Positions 4,879-64,000 of a stretch of 64,000 bases of DNA are shown here, piece by piece. Source of the stretch: a virus (Duplodnaviria > Caudoviricetes); IMG/VR virus record IMGVR_UViG_3300017778_007091, positions 24,412 to 88,411 of that record; one strand, written 5' to 3'. The notes below the pieces were generated by a model that did not search any database, had not been told where the DNA came from, and saw only the letters and a list, made by a program, of their open reading frames with translations. Within the stretch, counting starts at the first letter, position 1. The number at the start of each line of letters is the position of its first letter. The position numbers and the translations under genes were made by a program.

Positions 4879-5313
4879 TCAGCCGCCAGAGATACCTATT
4901 GATCCTGATGCTGCTGCAAGGCAGAAACTAAAACCGTCAGAGACGAGAGTCACCGAGCTATTCTGAAGTGCTGGAAAGGTAACCAAGCTGCCGAACCCGT
5001 CGGGAGTAGCGCCGGCTTGTCCGCAAAAGACCTTCTTACCGCCAACTTCTGCTGAGCCGGTGAGCTTGTGCTGGCGTGGGCTTGCATTTGCTTGTCTAAA
5101 GATGAAGACACCGCCGGGGACAGAAGCCGCGAGGGGCATCACAACGGTGATGTCGCCGTCGGCCTTGCTAAGGAGGTAAACTCCTGGTGCGTCTACAGTT
5201 GCTGGCGTTGCTGTGATTGTCTGGACAGGTGAGAATGGGGTTGTCTCGAACTGAATGCCTGTGCCGGTTGTCTGGTAAAGGCCTTCTGACTCTGTGTAAT
5301 TAACTTTGGGCAT
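4879..5313 (-). CDS. Putative head decoration / high-copy virion protein
   Basis: 144 aa, beta-rich small residues, strong AGGAGG SD, own terminator, and high GC like the MCP (39/60 GC at 5101-5160). Function is inferred. Confidence 0.45.
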   Translation of the reverse strand: MPKVNYTESEGLYQTTGTGIQFETTPFSPVQTITATPATVDAPGVYLLSKADGDITVVMPLAASVPGGVFIFRQANASPRQHKLTGSAEVGGKKVFCGQAGATPDGFGSLVTFPALQNSSVTLVSDGFSFCLAAASGSIGISGG

Positions 5314-6892: not shown

Positions 6893-8824
6893 TCAGATGA
6901 TGTTCATGTCTAAACACGTGACTGTGCCGTAGAAGTCGCTGCGGACCATCTTCTTGCCGTAGCGAGTCATCACGCCCTTACGTGGGGTGAAGTCCTCTGG
7001 AGCGAAGATGGTAGGAGTGACGATGAGTGGGACGTAAGGAGCATAGACGTAGCCGGTCTCGAGGTAGCTGCCGCCCTTGTAACCGATAAGGATCTTGTTA
7101 CGGGGGAAGTAGGGGTCCTTGTAGACTGTGAAGCGGTTGCTCAGGCTGCCGATAGGTGCTGCACCGATCGAGAAGGAGGAACCGACCTGGCCCTGACCGT
7201 CGAGGCTGTAGCTAGGCTTGTAGAGGACCGAAGCCTCGAGGACGGTTGCCACATCGGGTGAAACCACGATGAAGTTGGCCGAACCACGAAGAGTCTTGCG
7301 GTGGATCTCGTTGGCGACGTCGATGATGGTCTCTGTGAGAGTCTCGTACCACTCACGGACTGTACCGGTGAAGTTAGGACCAGGTGCAGTGACGAGAGAT
7401 GAGGTGACTGTGCGAAGAATCTCGGCACCAGAGGTCTTGTTGACGAACTTGCCTGGTGAACGTGACCAGTAGTAGTTAGCGCCATTGGCCTGGGTGAGGA
7501 GGTCATTGAGGATCTCACGGTCGATCTCGAGAGCGATCTGCTCAGAGAGGATCTGAGTGAGCTCGACCTCTGCATCCAGTGAGTGGTATGCATTGAGGTC
7601 CTGAGCCAATTCTGGCGACCAACGAGCCCTGAGCTTACGAGTCGAAGCGGTGACCGCAATTGACTCAATCTTGATGTCGATCTCGGGGATGATTGGGCTG
7701 GGTGCTGACTGGAAATCAGACTCGAACGAGGGGATGACGAGAGTGTCACCGGAAGTGCCTGGAGTTGCAAATGAGTCTGCGATTGCGAACGATGCCGTGA
7801 GGAATGTTGCGTCAGATGTGCTTGCAGCTGGGAGGTAGGTTCCGGAGACGACCATGAGGATCGCCGAGGTGTTGAGTGTGATGTCAACAAGCGGATTGAC
7901 TGTGAAGGCTGCACCGTCCCAAGAACCGAGCTGATTGAGGCGGCGGATGTTGAGGATGTTTGAACCACCCTGTACTGTGTCGCCGATAGCCTTGAGGCCT
8001 GTTGAAGCTGCAGCTGTTGCTGAGAAGAGTGAGACGTCCTTGACCTGAGTTGAGTCGAAGACTTCGCCTTGACTTCCAGAGAGGCTGTCTGTACCGATGA
8101 CAAGGAATTGGAACTGGCCGTTACCGCTGAGTGTGGTGTCAGCTTCGATGAGGTTGGTGACCTGTGGGTCGAACTGGAGGAGACGACCGTCGGTTCCTGT
8201 AGCGTGAGCCTTGGCACCGTTGGTGAAAGTTGCACTGCCGGCGAAAGCACCCGAAGCGAGGAGGTCAAGTCCCGATGCGAACTTGTGAACCTTGCTGTAG
8301 GTTGTGCCGACGAGATCGTACTGACCGCCAGTTGCGAGAGATCCGCTCTGGATGCCGCGGCCGGTGGGGTTGTTGTAGATCGACTGGCCTGACTTGTAGG
8401 TGGCTGTACTTGTAGCTGAAGTACCGTTGGTGAGGCTTGCATCGCCACCAATGTCTGTTCCGTAGGTGTAGTCCAGGTAGAAGAGGAGACCGGAGGGGAG
8501 GCTCATGGGCTGGATGGAGACCAGCTCATTTGCGACCAGGCCACCGAAGACACGGCGGACGATTGGGAATGCGATTGAGGTGAAACCACGGAGGTCGCCA
8601 GAAGAAGAAAGGTTGCCACCGCCCTGTGAGAGGCTGTTGCTCTCACGGAGGACCTGTGCTGCCTGGTTCTCGAGGAGGCGTGCCATGTTGTCACGCTTGA
8701 CGCCTTCGAGGCCGCGAAGGAGGCCGGTGCGAGTCCACTTCTCAACGAGGCGGTTGCCTTCCGCGCTGTTATTGCGGTCGGAAATACCCTCTGTGAGAGT
8801 CTTAAGAGAAAATGACTTAGACAT
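6893..8824 (-). CDS. Major capsid protein (T4 gp23-like, HK97 fold)
   Basis: LVEKW..TGLL, ARLLENQ, PIVRRVF..LVANELVSIQPMSLPSGL.FYL, V.A.TRKLRARWS.ELAQDL.AYH.LDAE.EL..ILSE.I.LEIDREI and YAPYVPL...F.P..G..TRY motifs; AAGGAG SD. Confidence 0.96.
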   Translation of the reverse strand: MSKSFSLKTLTEGISDRNNSAEGNRLVEKWTRTGLLRGLEGVKRDNMARLLENQAAQVLRESNSLSQGGGNLSSSGDLRGFTSIAFPIVRRVFGGLVANELVSIQPMSLPSGLLFYLDYTYGTDIGGDASLTNGTSATSTATYKSGQSIYNNPTGRGIQSGSLATGGQYDLVGTTYSKVHKFASGLDLLASGAFAGSATFTNGAKAHATGTDGRLLQFDPQVTNLIEADTTLSGNGQFQFLVIGTDSLSGSQGEVFDSTQVKDVSLFSATAAASTGLKAIGDTVQGGSNILNIRRLNQLGSWDGAAFTVNPLVDITLNTSAILMVVSGTYLPAASTSDATFLTASFAIADSFATPGTSGDTLVIPSFESDFQSAPSPIIPEIDIKIESIAVTASTRKLRARWSPELAQDLNAYHSLDAEVELTQILSEQIALEIDREILNDLLTQANGANYYWSRSPGKFVNKTSGAEILRTVTSSLVTAPGPNFTGTVREWYETLTETIIDVANEIHRKTLRGSANFIVVSPDVATVLEASVLYKPSYSLDGQGQVGSSFSIGAAPIGSLSNRFTVYKDPYFPRNKILIGYKGGSYLETGYVYAPYVPLIVTPTIFAPEDFTPRKGVMTRYGKKMVRSDFYGTVTCLDMNII

Positions 8825-11424: not shown

Positions 11425-11760
11425 TCAGAGAGTGTCGATGATCTTCTTGCGAAGAGCGATACGACGCTCCTGGACGAGAGCGAGCTGGCGCTTAAGCTTG
11501 ACTTCAGTCTCCTTGAGTGCCTTGTAACCCTCAACATCTCCTGGGCCGTTGCCGTCACCTTTAACAGGTTTCTCACTTGATGCGTGAGTACGCTTCTTAG
11601 CATGCGAGACATTGCTAGGATCTTCCCAGCCTGACTCGTCCATGTCGAGGTGCATTTCTCTAGCAGCTGCCTTGTTTGCCTTGAGCATCTCGCCTTCAAG
11701 TTTCTTCTTCTCCTCAAGCACCATTCTCTTGAGCATTGTAGGTGTAAGCTTAATTGCCAT
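11425..11760 (-). CDS. Small head protein with propeptide-like N-terminus
   Basis: MAIKLTPTMLKRMVLEE..., C-terminal coiled coil; AGGAG SD; ATATTTA motif at 11787-11793. Confidence 0.7.
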   Translation of the reverse strand: MAIKLTPTMLKRMVLEEKKKLEGEMLKANKAAAREMHLDMDESGWEDPSNVSHAKKRTHASSEKPVKGDGNGPGDVEGYKALKETEVKLKRQLALVQERRIALRKKIIDTL

Positions 11761-54040: not shown

Positions 54041-54970
54041 TTATATGCCGCGAACGTCAGGATATCTATCTACAAATGACTTTATTGTCGCTCTAAGGCC
54101 ATCACGAAGCGGTGTGTACTCATCCGTCCAGCCAAGAGATCTAAGCTTCTGGTTCGATGAGGGTTTCTCATACTGACCATCAGGCTTTAACGCATCAAAC
54201 TTCACGTGTCCCTCAAATCCTATTTCTTCTCCGATCATCAGAGAAAGATTTTCGATAGAGACACAATCAGGATTGCCGATGTTGACAGGATCGTCACCGT
54301 CATAGTTTTCTGCGAGCCACAGGATGATCTTTGCTGCGTCTCTAGCAAAAGTGAACTCTCTAATTGGACGTCCAGACCCCCAGACGATGACCTCATTTCT
54401 GCCTTCAAGCATCGCCTCATGAAACTTGCGTATAAGTGAAGGAATGACATGTCCGCTGTTAAGATCGTAGTTGTCATTAATGCCGTAAAGATTATTAGGG
54501 ATGACTGAGATGAAGTTGCAACCGAACTGCTGACGATATGCCTTGCTCTGGACTTCCAACATGCGCTTCGCGTATGCATAACCAAAATTCGAATGATGAG
54601 GTGGGCCCATGTGAAGCTGGTCCTCAGTGAGAGGATACTTCACGTAGGGCGCGTCTGGATAGATGCAGGTCGAGAGCACAGAGACAAGCTTTAGCTTCTT
54701 CTCTCTACAGGCATCGAGCACATTCATGTTCATCTTGACATTGTCATCGAAGAAGTCAGCAACATAGTCGGTGTTGGCCTTCACGCCTCCGACTCTTGCA
54801 GCGCAATGAATGACAGCGTCTACTCGTCTATCTTCCAGAGTGAGGATAGCATGATTCGAATCTGTGAGATCACATTCCTTCGAGCTGAGTCCGACGGAGT
54901 CAGGAGACAGGGCAAGAATCTCACTTCCAAGCAGGCCAGATGAGCCTGTTACTAGAAAATTCTTTATCAA
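54041..54970 (-). CDS. fcl: GDP-L-fucose synthase (GDP-4-keto-6-deoxymannose epimerase/reductase)
   Basis: LVTGSSGLLG, VIHCAARVGGVKAN, STCIYP, YAYAKR, PNNLYG.NDNY, HVIPSLIRKF, WGSG.P.REF, KPDG; TTG start. Confidence 0.96.
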   Translation of the reverse strand: MIKNFLVTGSSGLLGSEILALSPDSVGLSSKECDLTDSNHAILTLEDRRVDAVIHCAARVGGVKANTDYVADFFDDNVKMNMNVLDACREKKLKLVSVLSTCIYPDAPYVKYPLTEDQLHMGPPHHSNFGYAYAKRMLEVQSKAYRQQFGCNFISVIPNNLYGINDNYDLNSGHVIPSLIRKFHEAMLEGRNEVIVWGSGRPIREFTFARDAAKIILWLAENYDGDDPVNIGNPDCVSIENLSLMIGEEIGFEGHVKFDALKPDGQYEKPSSNQKLRSLGWTDEYTPLRDGLRATIKSFVDRYPDVRGI

Positions 54971-54973
54971 TTT

Positions 54974-56380
54974 TCACTCCCAGGGACGCTTAATATGCCT
55001 TCCCCACCCTATGTGCCTCACATAACCTTTAGGATCTTGCGTAATAGACGCATAAATGCCTGCTTTCTGGTAAAGCTTATTAATATTATACTCAGACTCA
55101 TTGACATAGGCTGAAAGTGGCGAAAACATGAGCGCATGATTTGTGCTTCTAAGGCCAGGATTAAATGTGAAACCGCCCCATGAGTAATTTCCATATCTAA
55201 AGTCTCTACTCATCTCTTTGCCATATTTTCCATTTACAACAGGATGGTCATTAGTGTCGTTATGTGCCCTTAACCAGACTGTGAATATCTTAGGGTCATT
55301 ATTGAGTAACTCAAACGATGCTTCGATGAATCCTTTTTTATAGAATTCCCAATCTTCTTCGCAATGAAATATGAAGTCTGTCTTTACTTTAGAGTAAGCT
55401 CTATCAATTGAAGCAGCTTGACCTATATTTTTTTCGTTATACAATAGTGTTACTTTATCTCTAGGAAGAATATCATAACAAAAATCATTGATACCGTTTT
55501 TTCCAGAGTCTTCAACTATGATGAATTCTTCAATGGGGTATGTATTAAAAATCAAAAAAGACTCTAATGTCTGTCTAAGAAGATCGGGCCTATTACATGA
55601 TGTAATTACGACAGTAACTTTATTGCACAGATTCAAATTTTGACATGAAAGATCTGTATCTTGAACTTCATTTACATCATATTTTTTAAAATAATCAAGA
55701 TCTCTTTTTAAGCCAACATGATCAAACCAATTATTGACATCGCCTCTAGTCATTTTTACATTAGAAAAATATTCCCATGATTGAATTGCATAGTGATTAA
55801 TCCATGCATCGTCACAAGTGATAGTTTTACCCGCAACATTGCATTGATGAACGTCAAACGCTTTTAAATCACTTGTCTTTACTATGAATTTCATCCCATA
55901 ATAGCTAACTGTTGGCCCATTATCCATTTTTGCTCTATTCGTAAATGATTGGACAACGCTTCTTGGTTGATAAACATGCCCAGACGAACCAAAATGCTTC
56001 CATTTAACTATGATCTGCGATGCATCTTCATTTTTTTGAAGTAAATCTTTGACATTTAAGCTCTTTTCATAGATAAAGAATTCATCTAAATCAAATACTG
56101 CCAGCCATTTACAGACTTTTCTTGCTTCTGTTAGGTAATCTTGATATATTGATATCTGGCGGCCGACGTTTTTTGTATTCAAATCATTGTTGTATAAAGT
56201 TACTTTTCCTTCATCAATGAAAGTCTCAATAAGTGGAAAAAAATTATCTGTGCTACCATCGTTTATCAAATAAATATGATCAAATCCATGAGAAAGGTAA
56301 TGTGTAATCCACTCTCTTAAGACGTGTGATTCATTCTTAAAAACTGCAGCAACTGCAATTTCAAATTTATTATGACTCAT
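54974..56380 (-). CDS. Two-domain glycosyltransferase (GT92/GT2_4-like + GT2-like)
   Basis: N-terminal AVFKNE...REWI.HY...GFDHIYL.NDGSTD..WL..FDLDEF; C-terminal VITSCNRPDLL..TLESF..IFHCEEDWEF. Confidence 0.85.
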   Translation of the reverse strand: MSHNKFEIAVAAVFKNESHVLREWITHYLSHGFDHIYLINDGSTDNFFPLIETFIDEGKVTLYNNDLNTKNVGRQISIYQDYLTEARKVCKWLAVFDLDEFFIYEKSLNVKDLLQKNEDASQIIVKWKHFGSSGHVYQPRSVVQSFTNRAKMDNGPTVSYYGMKFIVKTSDLKAFDVHQCNVAGKTITCDDAWINHYAIQSWEYFSNVKMTRGDVNNWFDHVGLKRDLDYFKKYDVNEVQDTDLSCQNLNLCNKVTVVITSCNRPDLLRQTLESFLIFNTYPIEEFIIVEDSGKNGINDFCYDILPRDKVTLLYNEKNIGQAASIDRAYSKVKTDFIFHCEEDWEFYKKGFIEASFELLNNDPKIFTVWLRAHNDTNDHPVVNGKYGKEMSRDFRYGNYSWGGFTFNPGLRSTNHALMFSPLSAYVNESEYNINKLYQKAGIYASITQDPKGYVRHIGWGRHIKRPWE

Positions 56381-57099
56381 TTAATGCCCTCGAATCTAGG
56401 AAATTCTTGCATACTCTTATGCAGATGTAAAGCAACTGTTGAGAATTTTTCTTTAATATGATCCCATCTCTCCGGTGTTGCATATCCGGGATGGAGTGTA
56501 TTAACTTCATTTTTAACATTGATAAAGAATCTATTGAGATGTGATTCATCATGCCACAAGGCAACAATGTTATTATTAACATCAGTTTCAACTTGTTGCT
56601 TAAGGATGTTAATCATATTTGCAAACTCTTGAGATTTTGCACCCCAAAGACACCCCTGCCAATAAGTCGTTAGGTCATCATTCATAGTGACATGAGCAGT
56701 ACTTGCTTCATTTCTTTCAAAGGTCGCTTTGTGCGGTTCAAATACAAAACCTGGGTGCTGGACCCCGAAATACTTCTTATTCCTAAAAAGATCACTTTCT
56801 GTTGTATCTTTCATCCAGAGCAAATCAGCATCTGCAAATACACAATTTTCTGATTTGCAGATTTCATCAATAGCATTATGGATGAAATTGAATCGAAGAA
56901 GTGTGATGAATGGCCATTGCATGTGATCTATTTTATAGACCTGCATGTCATTAGGCCAATTTGCATATTCGACATTATCTGTAAATACGTGAAATCTATT
57001 GTCTTCGCCACGAAGAAAATGAGACTTCATAGAAGCGTAATAGTTTGGTAGAAAATTAATATAATTTCCTGTGCCTATAAAGATGATTGAATTGCTCAA
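56377..57099 (-). CDS. GT6-family glycosyltransferase (ABO A/B transferase / alpha-1,3-Gal(NAc)T homolog)
   Basis: IGTGNY, FHVFTD, WPFITLLRF, VFADAD (DXD), FERNE.S.A, YWQGCLWG, ALWHDESHLNR. Likely TTG start at 57099 overlapping the GT11 stop; the track gives 57120. Confidence 0.92.
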   Translation of the reverse strand: MSNSIIFIGTGNYINFLPNYYASMKSHFLRGEDNRFHVFTDNVEYANWPNDMQVYKIDHMQWPFITLLRFNFIHNAIDEICKSENCVFADADLLWMKDTTESDLFRNKKYFGVQHPGFVFEPHKATFERNEASTAHVTMNDDLTTYWQGCLWGAKSQEFANMINILKQQVETDVNNNIVALWHDESHLNRFFINVKNEVNTLHPGYATPERWDHIKEKFSTVALHLHKSMQEFPRFEGIK

Positions 57100-57854
57100 A
57101 CTACTGCCCATCCATTGCAATAAACATCGACCCAGTCTTCAGGACCTTTAGGCCCAAACCATGTTTTAGGTGCAATTGTCATTTCACTTGACGACAACTT
57201 TGATCCCCACCAGCTAAATGATGAATTAGCTATAATGTGGTAATTACACAGAGTCATCATACAAAGTTCAACCACGTCTGTCTTATTTTCTACAAAATGA
57301 CAATCTTGAAAAATTCTATTATTTTTGCACCAATCAATATCGTCAGAAAATACTATGAACTTACAATTAGGAGATTTTTCTCTAACTAAATTAATACTTT
57401 TTGTGTAGTAATCATCACCTACATAGGGATGAGTATCATAAAACTTTAGATAGTCCCCGCGTCTAACGTGTATTGCACAGACATTATTACCGTACGCTTT
57501 GATCGCGTCTTGGGCAACACTTAGAATATCATTCTTAAATGTGAAATTTTTGCGGATTAAACTATCCTTACCAAGGAAGTATTTTTCTGATTGAAAGTAA
57601 CCTTTAATTGCACAATAATCAGGCAATTCGAACACATTTTTGTCAAATAGAAATGATCTTTCTTCGTAGATAAATTTTGCTTCTATGCTGTTAGAAAATT
57701 CACAGTCTTCTAAAGAAAAAACATCAAGTATTTGTGCACCTGTTGGGAATACAGCTTTTGTCTTTAGCACATCTGCTATTGACAAAGTTGCTGCAACTTG
57801 AAACATTTGGTTTCCTAGCCTTCCATAGCTGCCAAGCAATGGATAACTAATCAT
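57096..57854 (-). CDS. GT11 alpha-1,2-fucosyltransferase
   Basis: GRLGNQMFQ, GYFQSEKYF, AIHVRRGDY, VFSDDIDWC, CNYHIIANSSFSWWG, P..WF. Confidence 0.95.
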   Translation of the reverse strand: MISYPLLGSYGRLGNQMFQVAATLSIADVLKTKAVFPTGAQILDVFSLEDCEFSNSIEAKFIYEERSFLFDKNVFELPDYCAIKGYFQSEKYFLGKDSLIRKNFTFKNDILSVAQDAIKAYGNNVCAIHVRRGDYLKFYDTHPYVGDDYYTKSINLVREKSPNCKFIVFSDDIDWCKNNRIFQDCHFVENKTDVVELCMMTLCNYHIIANSSFSWWGSKLSSSEMTIAPKTWFGPKGPEDWVDVYCNGWAVV

Positions 57855-58594
57855 AACTCACCATAAGCAGTTCTTGATCTTACAAGTTGATCAACTCTAT
57901 TCTGGTCAACTGCGTTAATCACGTCATCGCTTATAGGATTCCACCTGTTGTAGACGTACAGGATGTTTGGTATGTAGATAAATCTTCCTGATGCCATCTC
58001 GAGCATTGGAATCATAAAAGCAACATCCCATGCTGTCTTAAAATAATATCCATCCTCATCACGCAAATCTTCATCCTTGATAGAATACCAGAGCCTACTC
58101 TTGAATGTTCTAAGATGACTTGAGATAAACTTGTACGATCTATATGAATTGTCTCTAACGACTTCAGGCGGGAAATTTCTAGGAAATGAAATTTCTCCTG
58201 TTGGCCAGTGGATAAAGCTTCCGTATGTAAGTAGAGCATTGCTCTGACTATATGCTTGATCTACCAGACTTAGCGAGTACTCACAGAAAAGATAGTCATC
58301 ACCATCAATTATCATCAAGACAGATTCAGGATCACTTTTTGCATCAAGCTTATTGAATCCCTCAACAATGTTGTGTAGCGCTTTTTTATTAGACACATTG
58401 TGAATTACACTAAATCTTGAATCTTTAAAGTGTGCAATAAACTCATCAATCTTTTCACCAGTTTTGTCTGTTGATGCATCATTGTAGATGATGCACTCAA
58501 AATTAGTGTGGACTTGTGACTTGATTGATAGGAGGCAGCGCTGTATCCAATTTTCTGTGTTATATGTCGGAACAACAATTTTAAATTTAGTCAT
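57851..58594 (-). CDS. GT2-family glycosyltransferase
   Basis: IVVPTYN...I.RCL.SI..Q, NDASTD, IDGDD. Confidence 0.9.
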   Translation of the reverse strand: MTKFKIVVPTYNTENWIQRCLLSIKSQVHTNFECIIYNDASTDKTGEKIDEFIAHFKDSRFSVIHNVSNKKALHNIVEGFNKLDAKSDPESVLMIIDGDDYLFCEYSLSLVDQAYSQSNALLTYGSFIHWPTGEISFPRNFPPEVVRDNSYRSYKFISSHLRTFKSRLWYSIKDEDLRDEDGYYFKTAWDVAFMIPMLEMASGRFIYIPNILYVYNRWNPISDDVINAVDQNRVDQLVRSRTAYGEL

Positions 58595-59325
58595 TAAATC
58601 AGCTCTTGATTAGTTGATGTATTTCTTCTATAACAATACTGCTGCTCTGCAAGTATTGTTGTTTGGCCAAACATTGCTGTTAGCCTGAAGTTAAAGTCAC
58701 TATCTTCACTTACGAGAACTCTCAGTCCTGCATTTGGTGGGTTAAATCTAATGCCCATCTCCCAAATTTGACGATAGAATAAAGCAGTTACTCCAGCTGT
58801 CTCAAAATTACCCGTATCATAGTGATTTATACCTGGAGTTTTTGATCCCTTGATGACAAGTTCTTTAACAGCATCTGCTGGAATAACAGATAATTCGTTA
58901 TTAGATTTGTGACTTATAGAAAAATTTTCGATATCTTCTTCCGACCAGCAATGATAAAAACCGCAGAGATTATGTAGAGAATTTGTCGCAATTAGACATT
59001 TAACTTGTCTTTCAATTCTTTCTGGTAATGAAATATCATCAGCATCATGAGAAGTACATAAAACAGCTTTTGAAGTTCTTATTGCCTCATTAAGGCAATG
59101 CCATTTACCCATATTTGTATTGAACGTTATTCCTCTTACTCTAGAATCTCTTTGCTTAAGAGATTCAATAATCTCATCAACACGTTGATCTTTTGAAGAA
59201 CAATCATTTATGATACAAATATCTAGATTTTTATACGATTGTGAAATTATACTTTCCACAGAAGATTCAAGAAATTTTCCGTGATTATAACAGGAAATTG
59301 CAACAAGAACTTTTGGGTCAAGCAT
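58594..59325 (-). CDS. GT2-family glycosyltransferase
   Basis: VAISCYNH.KFL..SVESI..Q.Y.N, NDCS, HDADDISLPERIERQV, EDSDF. Confidence 0.9.
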   Translation of the reverse strand: MLDPKVLVAISCYNHGKFLESSVESIISQSYKNLDICIINDCSSKDQRVDEIIESLKQRDSRVRGITFNTNMGKWHCLNEAIRTSKAVLCTSHDADDISLPERIERQVKCLIATNSLHNLCGFYHCWSEEDIENFSISHKSNNELSVIPADAVKELVIKGSKTPGINHYDTGNFETAGVTALFYRQIWEMGIRFNPPNAGLRVLVSEDSDFNFRLTAMFGQTTILAEQQYCYRRNTSTNQELI

Positions 59326-59328
59326 AAT

Positions 59329-60336
59329 TCAAATATTATTCTTCTTTCGCCAAGTTTTCATTATTTTTGGATGCTTATCACAATAAAACCAGGGCGTAGG
59401 CGTACTGAAGTTGACCTTTCTATGACAGATCCACCCGCCCATCTCCTTTTCAAGTTTTATTGCAACTTCATCAATGTCATTTTCATTGACTTCTGCCCAG
59501 GGCTTATCAAAGAATACGTTGTTTTCTGGTGTGTCATTCGGATCAGTGTTGAAAATTGAAGGCCAGTGCTTTCTCCAGTAGTCTCTATAAGAAACAACCT
59601 TACGCCTAATTGACCACCATGAATAATGATAAACACCTGGGTAATGATCAATATACATGATCATCAACTCGCCAAACTTATCAGAGATATCGCGTGTTTT
59701 ATAGTGAAGTGCTGCGTGTCTAAGATTCTCAAATTCAGGTGTCCATGTCATAGCCCATGGGACACGTTCTAATGAACTTTCGTAGATGTAATCATCTCCG
59801 TCTGATCCTTTCGAGTACATATTGCCTTTTTCATCATATGCACGCTGGTCTTTTGGAATGCCATGAATAATATCGGGATTATTTCTAGAGATTCTCCACT
59901 TCCACGTGTTAACATCAATTCTACACTTGCCTTTTGGACCCCAATATTCAAGAACAGGAAGCGCTACAAGATTCATGTCTTGTGGTAAAGCATCGCATAA
60001 GTTATGAATCTTTTGATAATCATTTTCATGCACAATTTCATCAACATCAAACTGCCAAAGAAAATCACCTGTTGAGATTTTTCTTCCTAACGTTTTTAGG
60101 TGAGAGCCTGAGTAGATTTTTAGTCTTTCATCTTCGGTCTTTTGTGCAGAATGAACCTTGAGTTTAGGTTCTTTAGCTGACCACTCAACTAATGACTCAT
60201 ATGTCCCATCACTAGAGTTATCATCGATAACAACAACCTCATTACAAAAGTCTAAATGTGACTGAATTGACTCACGCCAAGGAAAGTTCTGCGATTCACA
60301 GTTAAAGGTAAGAGTATATCCTGAAATGTTAGGCAT
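59329..60336 (-). CDS. GT2-like glycosyltransferase
   Basis: ISGY....N.....FPWRESI.S.L.FC.EVVVIDD.SSDGT; WQFDVDEIV. Confidence 0.8.
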   Translation of the reverse strand: MPNISGYTLTFNCESQNFPWRESIQSHLDFCNEVVVIDDNSSDGTYESLVEWSAKEPKLKVHSAQKTEDERLKIYSGSHLKTLGRKISTGDFLWQFDVDEIVHENDYQKIHNLCDALPQDMNLVALPVLEYWGPKGKCRIDVNTWKWRISRNNPDIIHGIPKDQRAYDEKGNMYSKGSDGDDYIYESSLERVPWAMTWTPEFENLRHAALHYKTRDISDKFGELMIMYIDHYPGVYHYSWWSIRRKVVSYRDYWRKHWPSIFNTDPNDTPENNVFFDKPWAEVNENDIDEVAIKLEKEMGGWICHRKVNFSTPTPWFYCDKHPKIMKTWRKKNNI

Positions 60337-61849
60337 TTTTAATCCGATATTTTCTAGTTGTAGGCAATACTTGTGTGACTTGGTCGAGATAAGTTAGATA
60401 TTTTTCTCTCATGATCTCACTAAGCTGTGCATTCTTATGCAAGTCCTCAGCATCTTGACCAAAGAAAGTCCCTAATTGAATTTTATCATTAGTCTCAGAA
60501 TTGATCACGTCTAGACGATCATTTTCATATTTTAGTGTGACATGCGGATAATTTCTAATTAAAGCAATCTTCCATGGCGCTTGCGTCATATCAATTGTTT
60601 GAAGTTCGTCTTTATATGTGATAAGAGGCATTGCAAGATTCTGGTGGCTCTTATGCAGATTTGAGACAACGACATTGATCAAATTTGCATGATTGTCGTC
60701 AATAACTTCATCTGGCTTGCTCAGCCAGATTAGATCAGACTTACATGAATCTCTTGCAATTTTCCAACATGCGTCAAGGTCTCTTGATTGAGATTTTATC
60801 AAGCATAACTTTGAATTATCTTTTGCAATTTCATTAAGCGCAAGTGTTGTGTCATCATTTGATCCAGCATCAACTACAACAACTTTCTCAAATACATCTA
60901 GCATGGTCTCAATTGATTCAACAAATGGCTCATTTAGAGACATGGAATCTTGTGTCACAATGCAGCCAGAGATTCCCAGATTTCTTCTATAGTATTTTTC
61001 GATGATAGACCAAAATACCCTTGGACGTGCTTTCAAATAATCACAGACGTCATCTGGTGATCCCTGCCACCATTTTTCGTTTGAGTGCTGGACATTGTCA
61101 TTGACTATGACATCGCAACCTAATAGCTTAGCTTCAATAACCATTCTTGGGCAAGTGTCGCCTCCAAGCGGAAGATAAACAAATCCCTCAGCGCTTGCTA
61201 ATTTCGAAAGAAGATCAGCATACGGAAGATTCCATACGACTTCAAAATTCTTATTGTTGTCTTGGCACCACTTGACAGCAGAATTCTTACCTTTGATCCA
61301 TGAATCAGAGCCAAGGACAACCCATCCGGATCGATCATCATTTCCACTCTTCATAATCTCGAAAGTATTAAAAAAGTCCTGATCGAATACAGAAGAAAGG
61401 ACAGTCTGGTTTCTAAATTTCAAGTAAGGAAAGTAACTATGGTATCTGTCTCTTTGCCCTTCAGACATCCAGAAGATGTGATCTGCTCCGTAATAAAAGG
61501 CTGAGACGTACTTTCCAATGACGCTATCAGCACAATCACAATCTTTTCCAGCTGAAGCTTTGTGTTTTTCTATAGACCTGTAATTGCAGAACTTGTAGTC
61601 ATATTCAAGGACAGAATAATTGACATTACCAACAATGGCAGGTATCAGATTGAAATTGATGCTTGCAAAGTTTCCAAATATCCAGTAGTCATTTTGATGC
61701 TCTTTAATGAACTCAACAGTTACATGACTTGACTTGATCTTTTTAATAGCGATTTTTGAGCTATCAATTAAGGCCTTTGTTGTAAGCTCTGCACCGCCTT
61801 CATAATCTTCTGCAAATAAGTCAGCGACAAAAATAATTTGTGTATTCAT
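60329..61849 (-). CDS. Two-domain glycosyltransferase (GT-B-like + degenerate GT2-like)
   Basis: N-terminal GGAEL..., FVYLP.GGDTCPRMVIEAKLLGC; C-terminal ISGCIV...EPFVESI..ML...EKVVVVDAGSND resembles 59329..60336. Confidence 0.75.
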   Translation of the reverse strand: MNTQIIFVADLFAEDYEGGAELTTKALIDSSKIAIKKIKSSHVTVEFIKEHQNDYWIFGNFASINFNLIPAIVGNVNYSVLEYDYKFCNYRSIEKHKASAGKDCDCADSVIGKYVSAFYYGADHIFWMSEGQRDRYHSYFPYLKFRNQTVLSSVFDQDFFNTFEIMKSGNDDRSGWVVLGSDSWIKGKNSAVKWCQDNNKNFEVVWNLPYADLLSKLASAEGFVYLPLGGDTCPRMVIEAKLLGCDVIVNDNVQHSNEKWWQGSPDDVCDYLKARPRVFWSIIEKYYRRNLGISGCIVTQDSMSLNEPFVESIETMLDVFEKVVVVDAGSNDDTTLALNEIAKDNSKLCLIKSQSRDLDACWKIARDSCKSDLIWLSKPDEVIDDNHANLINVVVSNLHKSHQNLAMPLITYKDELQTIDMTQAPWKIALIRNYPHVTLKYENDRLDVINSETNDKIQLGTFFGQDAEDLHKNAQLSEIMREKYLTYLDQVTQVLPTTRKYRIKNA

Positions 61850-61891: not shown

Positions 61892-62092
61892 TTACCTTGT
61901 TGTTCCAACTCTTCCGATCTTGCCGTCGGAGAGGATCTTCTTGATGTCCTTTCCTAGATCGAGCACGCCCTGCTTGAACGGCTCGATGAACACGTAGGCC
62001 GCGGCAACGATGGCGATGACGATCACGCTGATGAGCAGCATGTACTCGACGGTGGACTGGCCTTCCTCATCTTTCAAAAGTTCTTTGATCAT
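61892..62092 (-). CDS. flp: Flp/Fap type IVb (Tad) pilin
   Basis: 66 aa; leader ..KDEEG|QSTVEY with G(-1), E(+5), Y(+6) Flp motif and hydrophobic helix MLLISVIVIAIVAAAYVFI; AAGGGG SD; 36/60 GC at 61981-62040. Confidence 0.9.
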   Translation of the reverse strand: MIKELLKDEEGQSTVEYMLLISVIVIAIVAAAYVFIEPFKQGVLDLGKDIKKILSDGKIGRVGTTR

Positions 62093-62165
62093 TTAGAATC
62101 CCCTTGTTGCTGGATGATAGAAAACTCTGCTATTGAACCAGCGAATGAAGAAACTCTAGAAAACA

Positions 62166-62915
62166 TTAGACACCGTACCTGCTGCGACCAGCCTGGAAGT
62201 TAGTTGAGACCTGCCCTGCTGAGAGAGCCGTGTTGTAGACATGGAAGGCACCGAGTCTCATGTTGGAGAAAGTTCCGTCTCCTAAGTTTGTTCCGTCCGC
62301 GTGGGCGATGGCGTAGTGTAGTGGTAGGCTGCCTCCATCGTTGTAGGGAGTCGAACGTGTTATAGTGGAGGATGTAACGGCAAGCGCACCGTTGACATAA
62401 CCTCTCAGGACCGATCCATCGAACGTGAAACCTGCGTAGTACCAGGCGCTTAGTGGGGTCGATATGGTCGATGAAAATCCTGCCTGGTTGCTCCAGACAG
62501 AGAACTTCATTGTCCCAGCGACCATCTCAATCTGTGAGTCGTGCCAGGCAGAATTTGGGGTCGTCTGACCCAGCTCCTGGAGAATAACGCCGTTGTCTAT
62601 GGGATACACCCAGGCGAATATGGAGGTCACCGTTGATGTGTTCGCGGGAGAAAGCTTTGAGTTGAGGCTGGTGTTGGTCACCAGGTACTGGTTGGTGCCG
62701 TTGAACGTGAGGTAGCCAGATGCGTATGTCGGTGTGTTGAAGAGAGTTGCGTTGCTGTTAGACTGAAGATCTGTGACTGTGCTACCAGCCCCAGAGTATG
62801 ATGAAGCGTTTCCGATGTCATAGTTGAGAATGAGACCCGTTGAAACGATGCTACTTCCGCTCGTGAAAGGGCGTGTTGAGATGGGCCCCGCAAAATTTGA
62901 GAACTTTCCGTACAT
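62166..62915 (-). CDS. LamG / concanavalin-A-like lectin protein (probable fibre-tip adhesin)
   Basis: IVSTGLILNYD....SY.G.G.T.TDL, L.FNGTNQY, SI.AWV, WYYAGFTFDG..L..YVNG, AFHVYN.ALSA.QV..NF.A...RYG. Confidence 0.85.
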   Translation of the reverse strand: MYGKFSNFAGPISTRPFTSGSSIVSTGLILNYDIGNASSYSGAGSTVTDLQSNSNATLFNTPTYASGYLTFNGTNQYLVTNTSLNSKLSPANTSTVTSIFAWVYPIDNGVILQELGQTTPNSAWHDSQIEMVAGTMKFSVWSNQAGFSSTISTPLSAWYYAGFTFDGSVLRGYVNGALAVTSSTITRSTPYNDGGSLPLHYAIAHADGTNLGDGTFSNMRLGAFHVYNTALSAGQVSTNFQAGRSRYGV

Positions 62916-62919
62916 CAGA

Positions 62920-64000
62920 TCAACCGTATGTGCTCATCTGGCCGAGGACTGTCCAGATTGAGCCCGACCTGATGAGGCTGAATCCGAAGACATCCTGCTG
63001 GTTTGCATTCCCAGTGGGTGTCGTCTTGTTCGCCCAGAGAATAGAACCTGATGTGCTATTGACCTGTATTCCATCAACAATTCTTGGAGTAGCGCTCTGT
63101 GAGAAGATAACTGTAGTCGTAATGACTCTATTGTTGTTAGTAGTTGGAACATTAGTAAAGTTGGCAAGAATATTTCCTGCTGGAGAATTGACATAGAAGA
63201 TGCTATTGTATGTTGTGTCAAATGTAACAGTTCCTGTTCCGCCTACAGAAGTCTGTAAACGCTCTACAGTAGAGCCTAACGAAGTTGAACCTGAAATAAC
63301 TAGACTTCCAGAGACTTCAGCATTTCCATTTTCTCCAACAGAGAACTGTTCTGCTCCTCCACCGTCCTGGACTATGAACTTATGACCCTCTGCGCTTTTG
63401 TCAATGTCGAGCTTTGCAATGATGTTTCCGCTGGAGATCAGCGTCATCACGTTTGCACTCGGAGAACCGGGCGCGCCGATGATATTGCCTGTTGTTATCG
63501 CAAGATCATTGTTCACGGTCGTGCGGCCTGTTGAAGCTCCGAAGCTCACAGATGTCGCTGCACCGCCGATATTCACAGTCGTTGCGACTGTGTTGTAGAG
63601 CGTTGCTGTCGTCTTTGTTGTTAATATGTCAGCCTGCGATGGTCCACCAATTGTGAGATTCTCGTCTATGAAGGTGAATGACCCTGTTAGATTACCAAGA
63701 ATTCTTGTTGATCCACCTGACTTTCCAATGCTAAGTGTGTTCGCTGTCTGAGCAAAGTTGACCGTTGTTGCCGATCCGGTGATCAGGTTAAATGTTGTCG
63801 CGGTGGTTGTAATATCACCACCACTCACTGCAAGATCTCCAGCGACAAAGATGCTTCCGGAAGTTAGGATGCTGCCTGAGACGAATAGGGCATTGTTCGC
63901 TACATCGCCCTGGAGCTGTAGTATTATTTGATTTCCTACGGTACCTGAGTGTTGTACCTCGAAGTAGCTTCCTGTCTTATGACCGTTGTTGTTGCCGCTG
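62920..64000 (-). CDS. Tail fibre-like protein (5'-truncated at the window edge)
   Basis: The frame of the track ORF stays open by hand translation to 63999 (SGNNNGHKTGSYF...LAVSGGDIT). T/G/S-rich beta repeats; C-terminal WAN..TPTG...QDVF.FSLIR.G..W.VLG domain. Confidence 0.75.
   Translation of the reverse strand, partial: SGNNNGHKTGSYFEVQHSGTVGNQIILQLQGDVANNALFVSGSILTSGSIFVAGDLAVSGGDITTTATTFNLITGSATTVNFAQTANTLSIGKSGGSTRILGNLTGSFTFIDENLTIGGPSQADILTTKTTATLYNTVATTVNIGGAATSVSFGASTGRTTVNNDLAITTGNIIGAPGSPSANVMTLISSGNIIAKLDIDKSAEGHKFIVQDGGGAEQFSVGENGNAEVSGSLVISGSTSLGSTVERLQTSVGGTGTVTFDTTYNSIFYVNSPAGNILANFTNVPTTNNNRVITTTVIFSQSATPRIVDGIQVNSTSGSILWANKTTPTGNANQQDVFGFSLIRSGSIWTVLGQMSTYG

Follow-up and report, generated by a model that had tools for sequence, protein, structure and literature searches.

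Gene organisation around flp

The window analysed here is a 64,000-nt stretch of viral DNA that comprises bases 24412–88411 of the 88,411-base IMG/VR record IMGVR_UViG_3300017778_007091, which is 24% complete by CheckV. All genes of the record lie on one strand, and they include genes for a large terminase, portal, major head protein, adaptor, baseplate wedge, fibre-like proteins and a LamG lectin. A tRNA scan of the window found none. Within this one-strand array, a short gene that we call flp lies between fibre/lectin genes and an array of GT2 glycosyltransferase genes (Table 1). This locus is best explained as a set of late genes, running from tail fibre and lectin through flp to the glycosyltransferases.

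Table 1. Features at the flp locus (window coordinates)
Feature	Position	Strand	Remarks
Tail-fibre-like gene	62920..63999	(-)	Open at contig end; PHROG: virion structural, short tail fibre
LamG/ConA-like lectin gene, 249 aa	62166..62915	(-)	Laminin_G_3 6.9e-09; phrog_8510 virion structural protein; upstream of flp
Spacer, 73 bases	62093..62165	(-)	Both junctions match L011: LamG-stop/PA14-start and PA14-end/flp-ATG
Shine-Dalgarno-like AAGGGGA	62099..62105	(-)	Six bases before flp ATG; read from sequence
flp prepilin gene	61892..62092	(-)	66 codons + stop, ATG start (ORF, translation)
Leader, residues 1–11	62060–62092	(-)	Acidic; ends ...DEEG
Predicted mature pilin, Q12–R66	61895–62059	(-)
GT506, first gene of glycosyltransferase array, 506 aa	60329..61849	(-)	42 bases after flp; weak GT2 match

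A PA14/GLEYA/F5_F8 lectin gene precedes flp in related phages and is missing from the window. In these relatives the flp ATG comes directly after the stop codon of the lectin gene, which suggests that flp is co-transcribed with late receptor-binding-type genes. To judge from its junctions, the spacer between the LamG lectin gene and flp in the window looks like what remained when the PA14/GLEYA lectin gene was lost, and the ribosome-binding region of flp in the window corresponds to the 3' end of that gene in relatives.

The LamG lectin is 91–93% identical to its counterparts in three related contigs (L005, L011 and L017; proportion of synonymous differences, pS, 0.30–0.40). The tail-fibre-like protein is 42–59% identical in relatives and GT506 about 47–50% (pS 0.74–0.78). 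With the lectin conserved and the GT506 flank diverged, the lectin–flp cassette has either been exchanged among phages or been far more constrained than its flanks. The GT2-type array after flp is long (54041–61849); GT2 domains occur in the three genes that follow GT506, and over one region GT506 and the gene after it are 28% identical.

Three arrangements of the locus were found among the phage contigs. In arrangement A, present in the window and seven other contigs, the order is fibre, LamG and/or PA14 lectin, flp, GT506, and proteins of 335 and 243 aa. In arrangement A', present in several contigs, PA14 and flp are followed by genes for 98, 82 and 131 aa, and in arrangement B, also in several contigs, flp lies between the 82-aa gene and an HNH endonuclease gene. 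An obligatory link between flp and the glycosyltransferases was considered and rejected, since the adjacency occurs in eight contigs and is absent from the two other arrangements.

Downstream of flp, arrangement B has the gene for an HNH endonuclease (Pfam HNH, 6e-07; L001 10233–10598, L012 7341–7700 and L020 6226–6585), which adjoins flp directly or, in L012, lies ~1.1 kb away. It may be a homing-type element that helps to move the small gene between phage positions. The 82-aa gene (L001 9753–9998; equivalents in L002–L004, L007, L012, L014 and L017–L026) is situated either immediately upstream of flp or within ~5 kb downstream of it. Pfam gave no match for it, and the 88-kb record does not contain it.

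The flp product as a class III prepilin

The earlier note on this DNA had described a complete prepilin with a class III signal and its own Shine-Dalgarno sequence, and both descriptions hold. The ORF of 66 aa is intact, AAGGGGA stands six bases 5' of the ATG, and the predicted processing site ...DEEG|QSTVEY has G11 in position -1, E16 in position +5 and Y17 in position +6; a hydrophobic segment of ~20 residues comes next. An alignment of 51 family sequences shows no variation at G11 or E16 and at least 90% conservation at Y17. The AlphaFold2 model, for which this alignment was the input, is all-helical (helices 2–34 and 36–56) with a mean pLDDT of 83.6, and in size and predicted fold the product thus falls within the Flp range (50–80 aa, all-helical).

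Profile searches place the protein less firmly. A check against PF04964 had been proposed in the earlier note, and here the threshold was missed: Flp_Fap scored 14.1 bits against a cut-off of 32.2. The other best Pfam scores of the window protein were Flp1_like (17.3 bits), Class_IIIsignal (17.1 bits) and DUF4244 (16.0 bits), all below the curated cut-offs. Among the 51 family members only four matched Flp_Fap at E<=0.01, while 30 matched Class_IIIsignal and 21 Flp1_like, the window protein being below the cut-off for both. A family profile compared with 177,635 PDB sequences ranked both solved Tad pilins, PilA (8u1k) and Flp (8u2b), first, at E-values of 0.17 and 0.64 that are not significant. 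Foldseek found no match for the flp model in the PDB, as is expected for a helical hairpin of 66 residues, and searches of PHROGs and NCBIfam with the flp product gave nothing useful.

Because the Pfam threshold was missed, membership in the Flp family rests on the motif, the fold and the context of homologues. Linkage to Tad genes (A24, CpaF-type ATPase, secretin) is found for cellular homologues and not for the phage copy. With moderate confidence in the overall explanation, in which supply of the product to a host machine is included, we take the gene to encode a genuine Flp-type (Tad, type IVc) prepilin, homologous to the product of a highly conserved flp gene that is usually an orphan and under sigma-54 control in a freshwater Myxococcota-type lineage.

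Absence of Tad machinery from the phage records

The observation that the window holds no other tad genes or prepilin peptidase was borne out and extends to the whole 88,411-base record, a search of which gave no A24 prepilin peptidase. Six Tad proteins of cellular loci (A24, secretin, TadZ, CpaF, TadB/C and CpaB-like proteins) served as tblastn queries and had no match in this record or in any of 26 loci of related phages, and five related viral records (63–132 kb) contained no A24 peptidase and no significant T2SSE match. All of these phage records are fragments, 21–40% complete, and the absence of machinery applies to those fragments. A phage pilin gene that is intact and very strongly conserved, and that is not accompanied by the machinery, most likely feeds a genuine subunit into a host Tad machine.

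Conservation of flp across large freshwater phages

At least 24 phage contigs, independent of one another and drawn from different samples, carry flp in the same or a related gene order and with 84–100% amino acid identity. A word-based search returned 576 proteins, the best 120 of which are 89–98% identical. Nine of the places found came with DNA (stretches of up to 20.2 kb, the longest from a 310-kb contig), and all nine look like phage genome; three further places listed without DNA have the same gene sets. The 20 kb from the 310-kb contig (L001) encode an RNA ligase, adenylosuccinate lyase, a tRNA synthetase and ClpP. IMG/VR yielded 17 additional flp loci at 84–100% identity. No deposited phage genome matched the 9 kb around flp by megablast, and a search of the literature on phage-encoded Flp or other pilins turned up no description of an Flp pilin borne by a phage. 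A paper on 'moraphages', which are large aquatic phages, was followed as a lead and set aside, as it mentions no pilins and predicts Bacteroidota hosts.

In the mature pilin 38 of 55 positions are invariant across 24 phage copies, and over the same part the mean pS is 0.66 against a proportion of nonsynonymous differences (pN) of 0.056. Compared with the relatives for which the major capsid protein was also analysed, flp gives pS of 0.31–0.60 and pN of 0.02–0.06; the capsid protein, 69–76% identical, gives pS of 0.48–0.57 and pN of 0.18–0.22. The silent divergence of flp is therefore about that of the capsid gene, and the constraint estimated at the protein level is about five to ten times tighter. 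Synonymous sites near saturation in a gene whose protein is almost unchanged indicate long residence in phages and no recent capture, and the same gene order on many independent contigs argues against an assembly artefact. The explanation that we judge somewhat better than evenly likely as a whole thus includes a family of very large freshwater phages that has long held flp under very strong purifying selection.

A tree of 51 sequences, based on few columns, clusters the phage copies (3 changes, against 11.8 with shuffled labels), with one cellular copy (L042) inside the cluster. Neither a single origin nor a donor was accepted from this tree, given the few columns and the position of L042 among the phage copies.

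Base composition of flp

The C/G-ending codons of flp had been put forward as a sign of capture from a host. flp is indeed richer in such codons than the adjacent glycosyltransferase gene (GC 0.52 and GC3 0.75 in flp; GC 0.38 and GC3 0.34 downstream), but as a mark of capture the bias fails: the major capsid gene shares it (GC3 0.66 here, 0.70–0.79 in relatives), and flp GC3 ranges from 0.21 to 0.82 across 24 phage copies, with some phages at 0.21–0.29. Cellular versions of flp have GC3 of 0.82–0.97. Strong expression or adaptation to the codon usage of a GC-rich host is the more likely source of the high GC3, rather than capture.

A few other genes of the window have GC3 far above the background of 0.2–0.4 (6893–8824, 4879–5313, 11425–11760, 54041–54970 and 62166–62915). 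The gene for the major head protein is one of them, at the GC3 given above, and together with the values for the capsid genes of relatives the pattern suggests codon selection towards a GC-rich host.

Cellular homologues and the probable host

Scanning of species-representative genomes gave 77 loci whose products are 37–83% identical to the phage pilin. Nearly all belong to metagenome-assembled genomes (MAGs), many recovered from lakes, that carry the labels Myxococcota, Deltaproteobacteria or unclassified proteobacteria; homologues of 60–83% identity come from freshwater MAGs of Myxococcota type. The GC content of the loci is 57–73%, with a few at 49%. The gene is present in 16 of 301 sampled genomes of the Myxococcota phylum; two Myxococcus genomes contained no significant homologue of the flp product (best E 0.36). 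An exact look-up of the L072 protein returned no record.

In five cellular genomes (5–10 Mb) the closest copy is 65–75% identical and usually an orphan. Both cellular types whose neighbourhoods were looked up have an aldehyde dehydrogenase gene before flp and, after it, a metallophosphatase gene on the opposite strand. Four genomes with an orphan closest copy also contain a paralogue, 41–44% identical, next to genes for an A24 peptidase and a CpaF-type ATPase, and the fifth (L111) has a 70%-identical copy at the head of a complete Tad locus (flp, A24, flp, secretin, ParA-like, T2SSE, T2SSF).

Some of the high-GC cellular proteins (P0198, P0209, P0234 and P0264, 286–373 aa) carry the same pilin N-terminus fused to long C-terminal regions, one of them with a weak Peptidase_C39-like match. 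MAG contigs of 63–73% GC (L034, L035, L040, L043, L045 and others) that bear a Myxococcota-type flp have NCBI names such as Klebsiella pneumoniae or Enterobacterales, and are probably mislabelled bins.

The earlier prediction of a high-GC, Tad-bearing host agrees with these results, the nearest cellular relatives being Tad-bearing bacteria of 57–73% GC whose MAGs are assigned to Myxococcota or Deltaproteobacteria. L042, which at 83% identity is the closest cellular type, comes from the same sample as a phage contig (L012), and the 82-aa gene has homologues in four of the cellular genomes described above (56–65% identical) and in Myxococcus (45%). The nearest homologues, the co-occurrence in one sample, the GC3 bias of the strongly expressed phage genes and the homologues of the 82-aa gene all point to the host, which, on gene similarity and co-occurrence, is probably a freshwater Myxococcota-type lineage. 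The GC content of the phages (35–57%) is well below that of most candidate hosts (57–73%).

The N-terminus of the mature pilin is identical in phage and cellular copies. The phage-typical residues E/D37-P38, D56 and V62 are in the minority among cellular copies, L042 being one that has them, and every majority residue in the mature part of the phage pilin also occurs among the 22 cellular copies with which it was compared. The phage product retains G-1, E+5 and Y+6 and shows neither truncations nor insertions.

A sigma-54 motif at cellular but not phage copies

A perfect sigma-54 consensus, TGGCAC-N5-TTGC, lies ~30–90 bases upstream of cellular, mostly orphan, flp in about 30 distinct loci (examples within L027–L066 and L104–L106; L029 7955–7969). 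The closest cellular type, L042, is without a perfect motif. The perfect motif is absent from all 26 phage loci, and in the window nothing near flp comes within two mismatches of the consensus. Lacking the motif, the phage copy is uncoupled from sigma-54 control.

A proposed role for the phage pilin, and alternatives

The explanation towards which we lean, with a confidence a little above even, is that the phage supplies an authentic Flp subunit to the host Tad machine outside host control. We infer the processing, polymerisation and timing of the phage pilin, its benefit and its host, along the following lines. The prepilin would be made during infection independently of host sigma-54 control and would insert in the inner membrane; a host A24 (TadV-type) peptidase would cleave it after G11; and the host Tad machine would polymerise it as an authentic, not defective, subunit. 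The outcome would be that piliation of the infected cell is sustained or forced. The phage might benefit if a Tad- or Kil-like adhesion or predation pilus were kept working while host gene expression fails, or, alternatively, through control of receptor display.

A more specific version, which we consider possible but rather unlikely, has predatory freshwater Myxococcota as hosts of the giant phages, which would bring with them 'auxiliary predation genes', namely the one for the major subunit of a Tad/Kil-like contact pilus of the host and, in relatives, a linked one for a second small host envelope protein. Expressed by the phage outside sigma-54 control, these would let the infected cell go on adhering to or killing prey and thereby feed a long and costly infection.

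The earlier note had instead proposed that the pilin jams or re-skins host pili. As a poison subunit it would block assembly or retraction, or alter the pilus surface, and rival pilus-dependent phages could then not adsorb. Phages use Tad pili as receptors, and phages that block type IV pili and thereby exclude rivals are known. The position of flp directly after lectin and fibre genes, and phage-typical residues that only a minority of cellular copies share, would fit such a role. Every majority residue of the mature phage pilin occurs in cellular copies, however, and the motif is intact and the protein neither truncated nor interrupted by insertions; with no phage-specific majority residue and the residues for processing and assembly preserved, an authentic subunit is favoured over a jamming one. 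The very strong purifying selection over the whole mature part also fits a working subunit better, and the excluders Tip, Aqs1 and PfsE target the ATPase or platform, not the fibre. We therefore regard a poison subunit as distinctly unlikely and do not favour it.

The pilin pool could alternatively act as a signal, with pilin, processed or unprocessed, building up in the inner membrane and working on a level sensor to reset sigma-54-dependent pilus and surface programmes of the host. Sigma-54 promoters are the class through which pilin is autoregulated in Pseudomonas (PilS-PilR), the perfect motif stands at the cellular gene in the loci described above, and the invariant N-terminal segment is the part that such sensors recognise. 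The analysis identified no sensor or enhancer-binding protein, however, and the C-terminal half is strongly conserved too, which a membrane signal alone would not require; we hold this possibility to be improbable.

To a role intrinsic to the phage, as a small membrane protein in lysis timing or entry or as a virion-associated hydrophobic protein, we likewise give little credence. The location of flp beside receptor-binding-type genes would also fit such a role: the gene lies inside a structural super-module, between fibre/lectin and baseplate genes, its GC3 reaches that of the capsid gene, and in relatives its ATG directly follows the lectin stop. In other phages, nevertheless, the genes around flp are non-structural (RNA ligase, adenylosuccinate lyase, HNH, thioredoxin), the leader of the prepilin and its cleavage motif are preserved in full, and full-length homology of up to 83% to cellular genes, one of which heads a Tad locus, is hard to reconcile with this role.

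That flp is an artefact of an assembly in which host DNA was joined to phage DNA, or was captured recently and has no function, as its location in a GC-richer stretch 1.9 kb from the contig end might suggest, is scarcely credible and is refuted by the synteny across contigs and the near-saturated synonymous sites, to which the GC3 values add (0.82–0.97 in cells, against 0.75 here and 0.21 in some phages).

If supply of an authentic subunit is indeed the role of the phage gene, then it offers a lead to the host (Tad-bearing freshwater Myxococcota) of giant phages that form an abundant, uncultured group, and would represent a phage that takes over a secretion-type nanomachine by substrate supply. 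Across phages whose genomes have drifted from ~35% to 57% GC, the pilin has been kept more strictly than the phage's own capsid protein.

Comparison with known systems

The phage pilin resembles the Flp/Fap pilins (Caulobacter PilA, 8u1k; Flp, 8u2b; PF04964) in being a short prepilin with a class III leader, G-1/E+5/Y+6 and a hydrophobic N-terminal helix that precedes a second helix, and its cellular homologues adjoin A24, CpaF, secretin and TadB/C genes. It differs in that it falls below the PF04964 cut-off, its PDB matches are not significant and it is borne by phages without the machinery.

KilP (mxan_5121) is the orphan major Flp pilin of the Kil predation pilus of Myxococcus xanthus (PMC12075869); we located its gene via a published primer. 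Like the phage pilin's cellular homologues, which are mostly orphans too, this Flp pilin, part of a Tad-like system in Myxococcota, has its gene outside the machinery clusters and is conserved in its lineage. It differs in length (85–97 aa) and in its C-terminus. Orthology was rejected, as BLASTP aligns 15 residues at the cleavage site, with the best E-value in the two Myxococcus genomes being the 0.36 given above; by sequence comparison KilP is an analogue in organisation, not an orthologue, of the phage pilin.

Cyanophage psbA is a phage copy of the gene for a high-turnover host protein. It shares with flp a host derivation, strong purifying selection, phage signals and, presumably, the sustaining of a host function; the flp product differs in being the subunit of a secreted fibre that needs a multi-protein host machine.

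The phage proteins Tip, Aqs1 and PfsE act on host type IV pili in superinfection exclusion by inhibiting the ATPase or platform, and, like flp, their genes are aimed at the pilus system of the host. They are not known to be pilins, whereas phage flp encodes a full pilin within the natural variation of its hosts. Phage interference with pili inhibits the machinery in the known cases; in the case of flp, by contrast, the phage would supply the fibre subunit itself.
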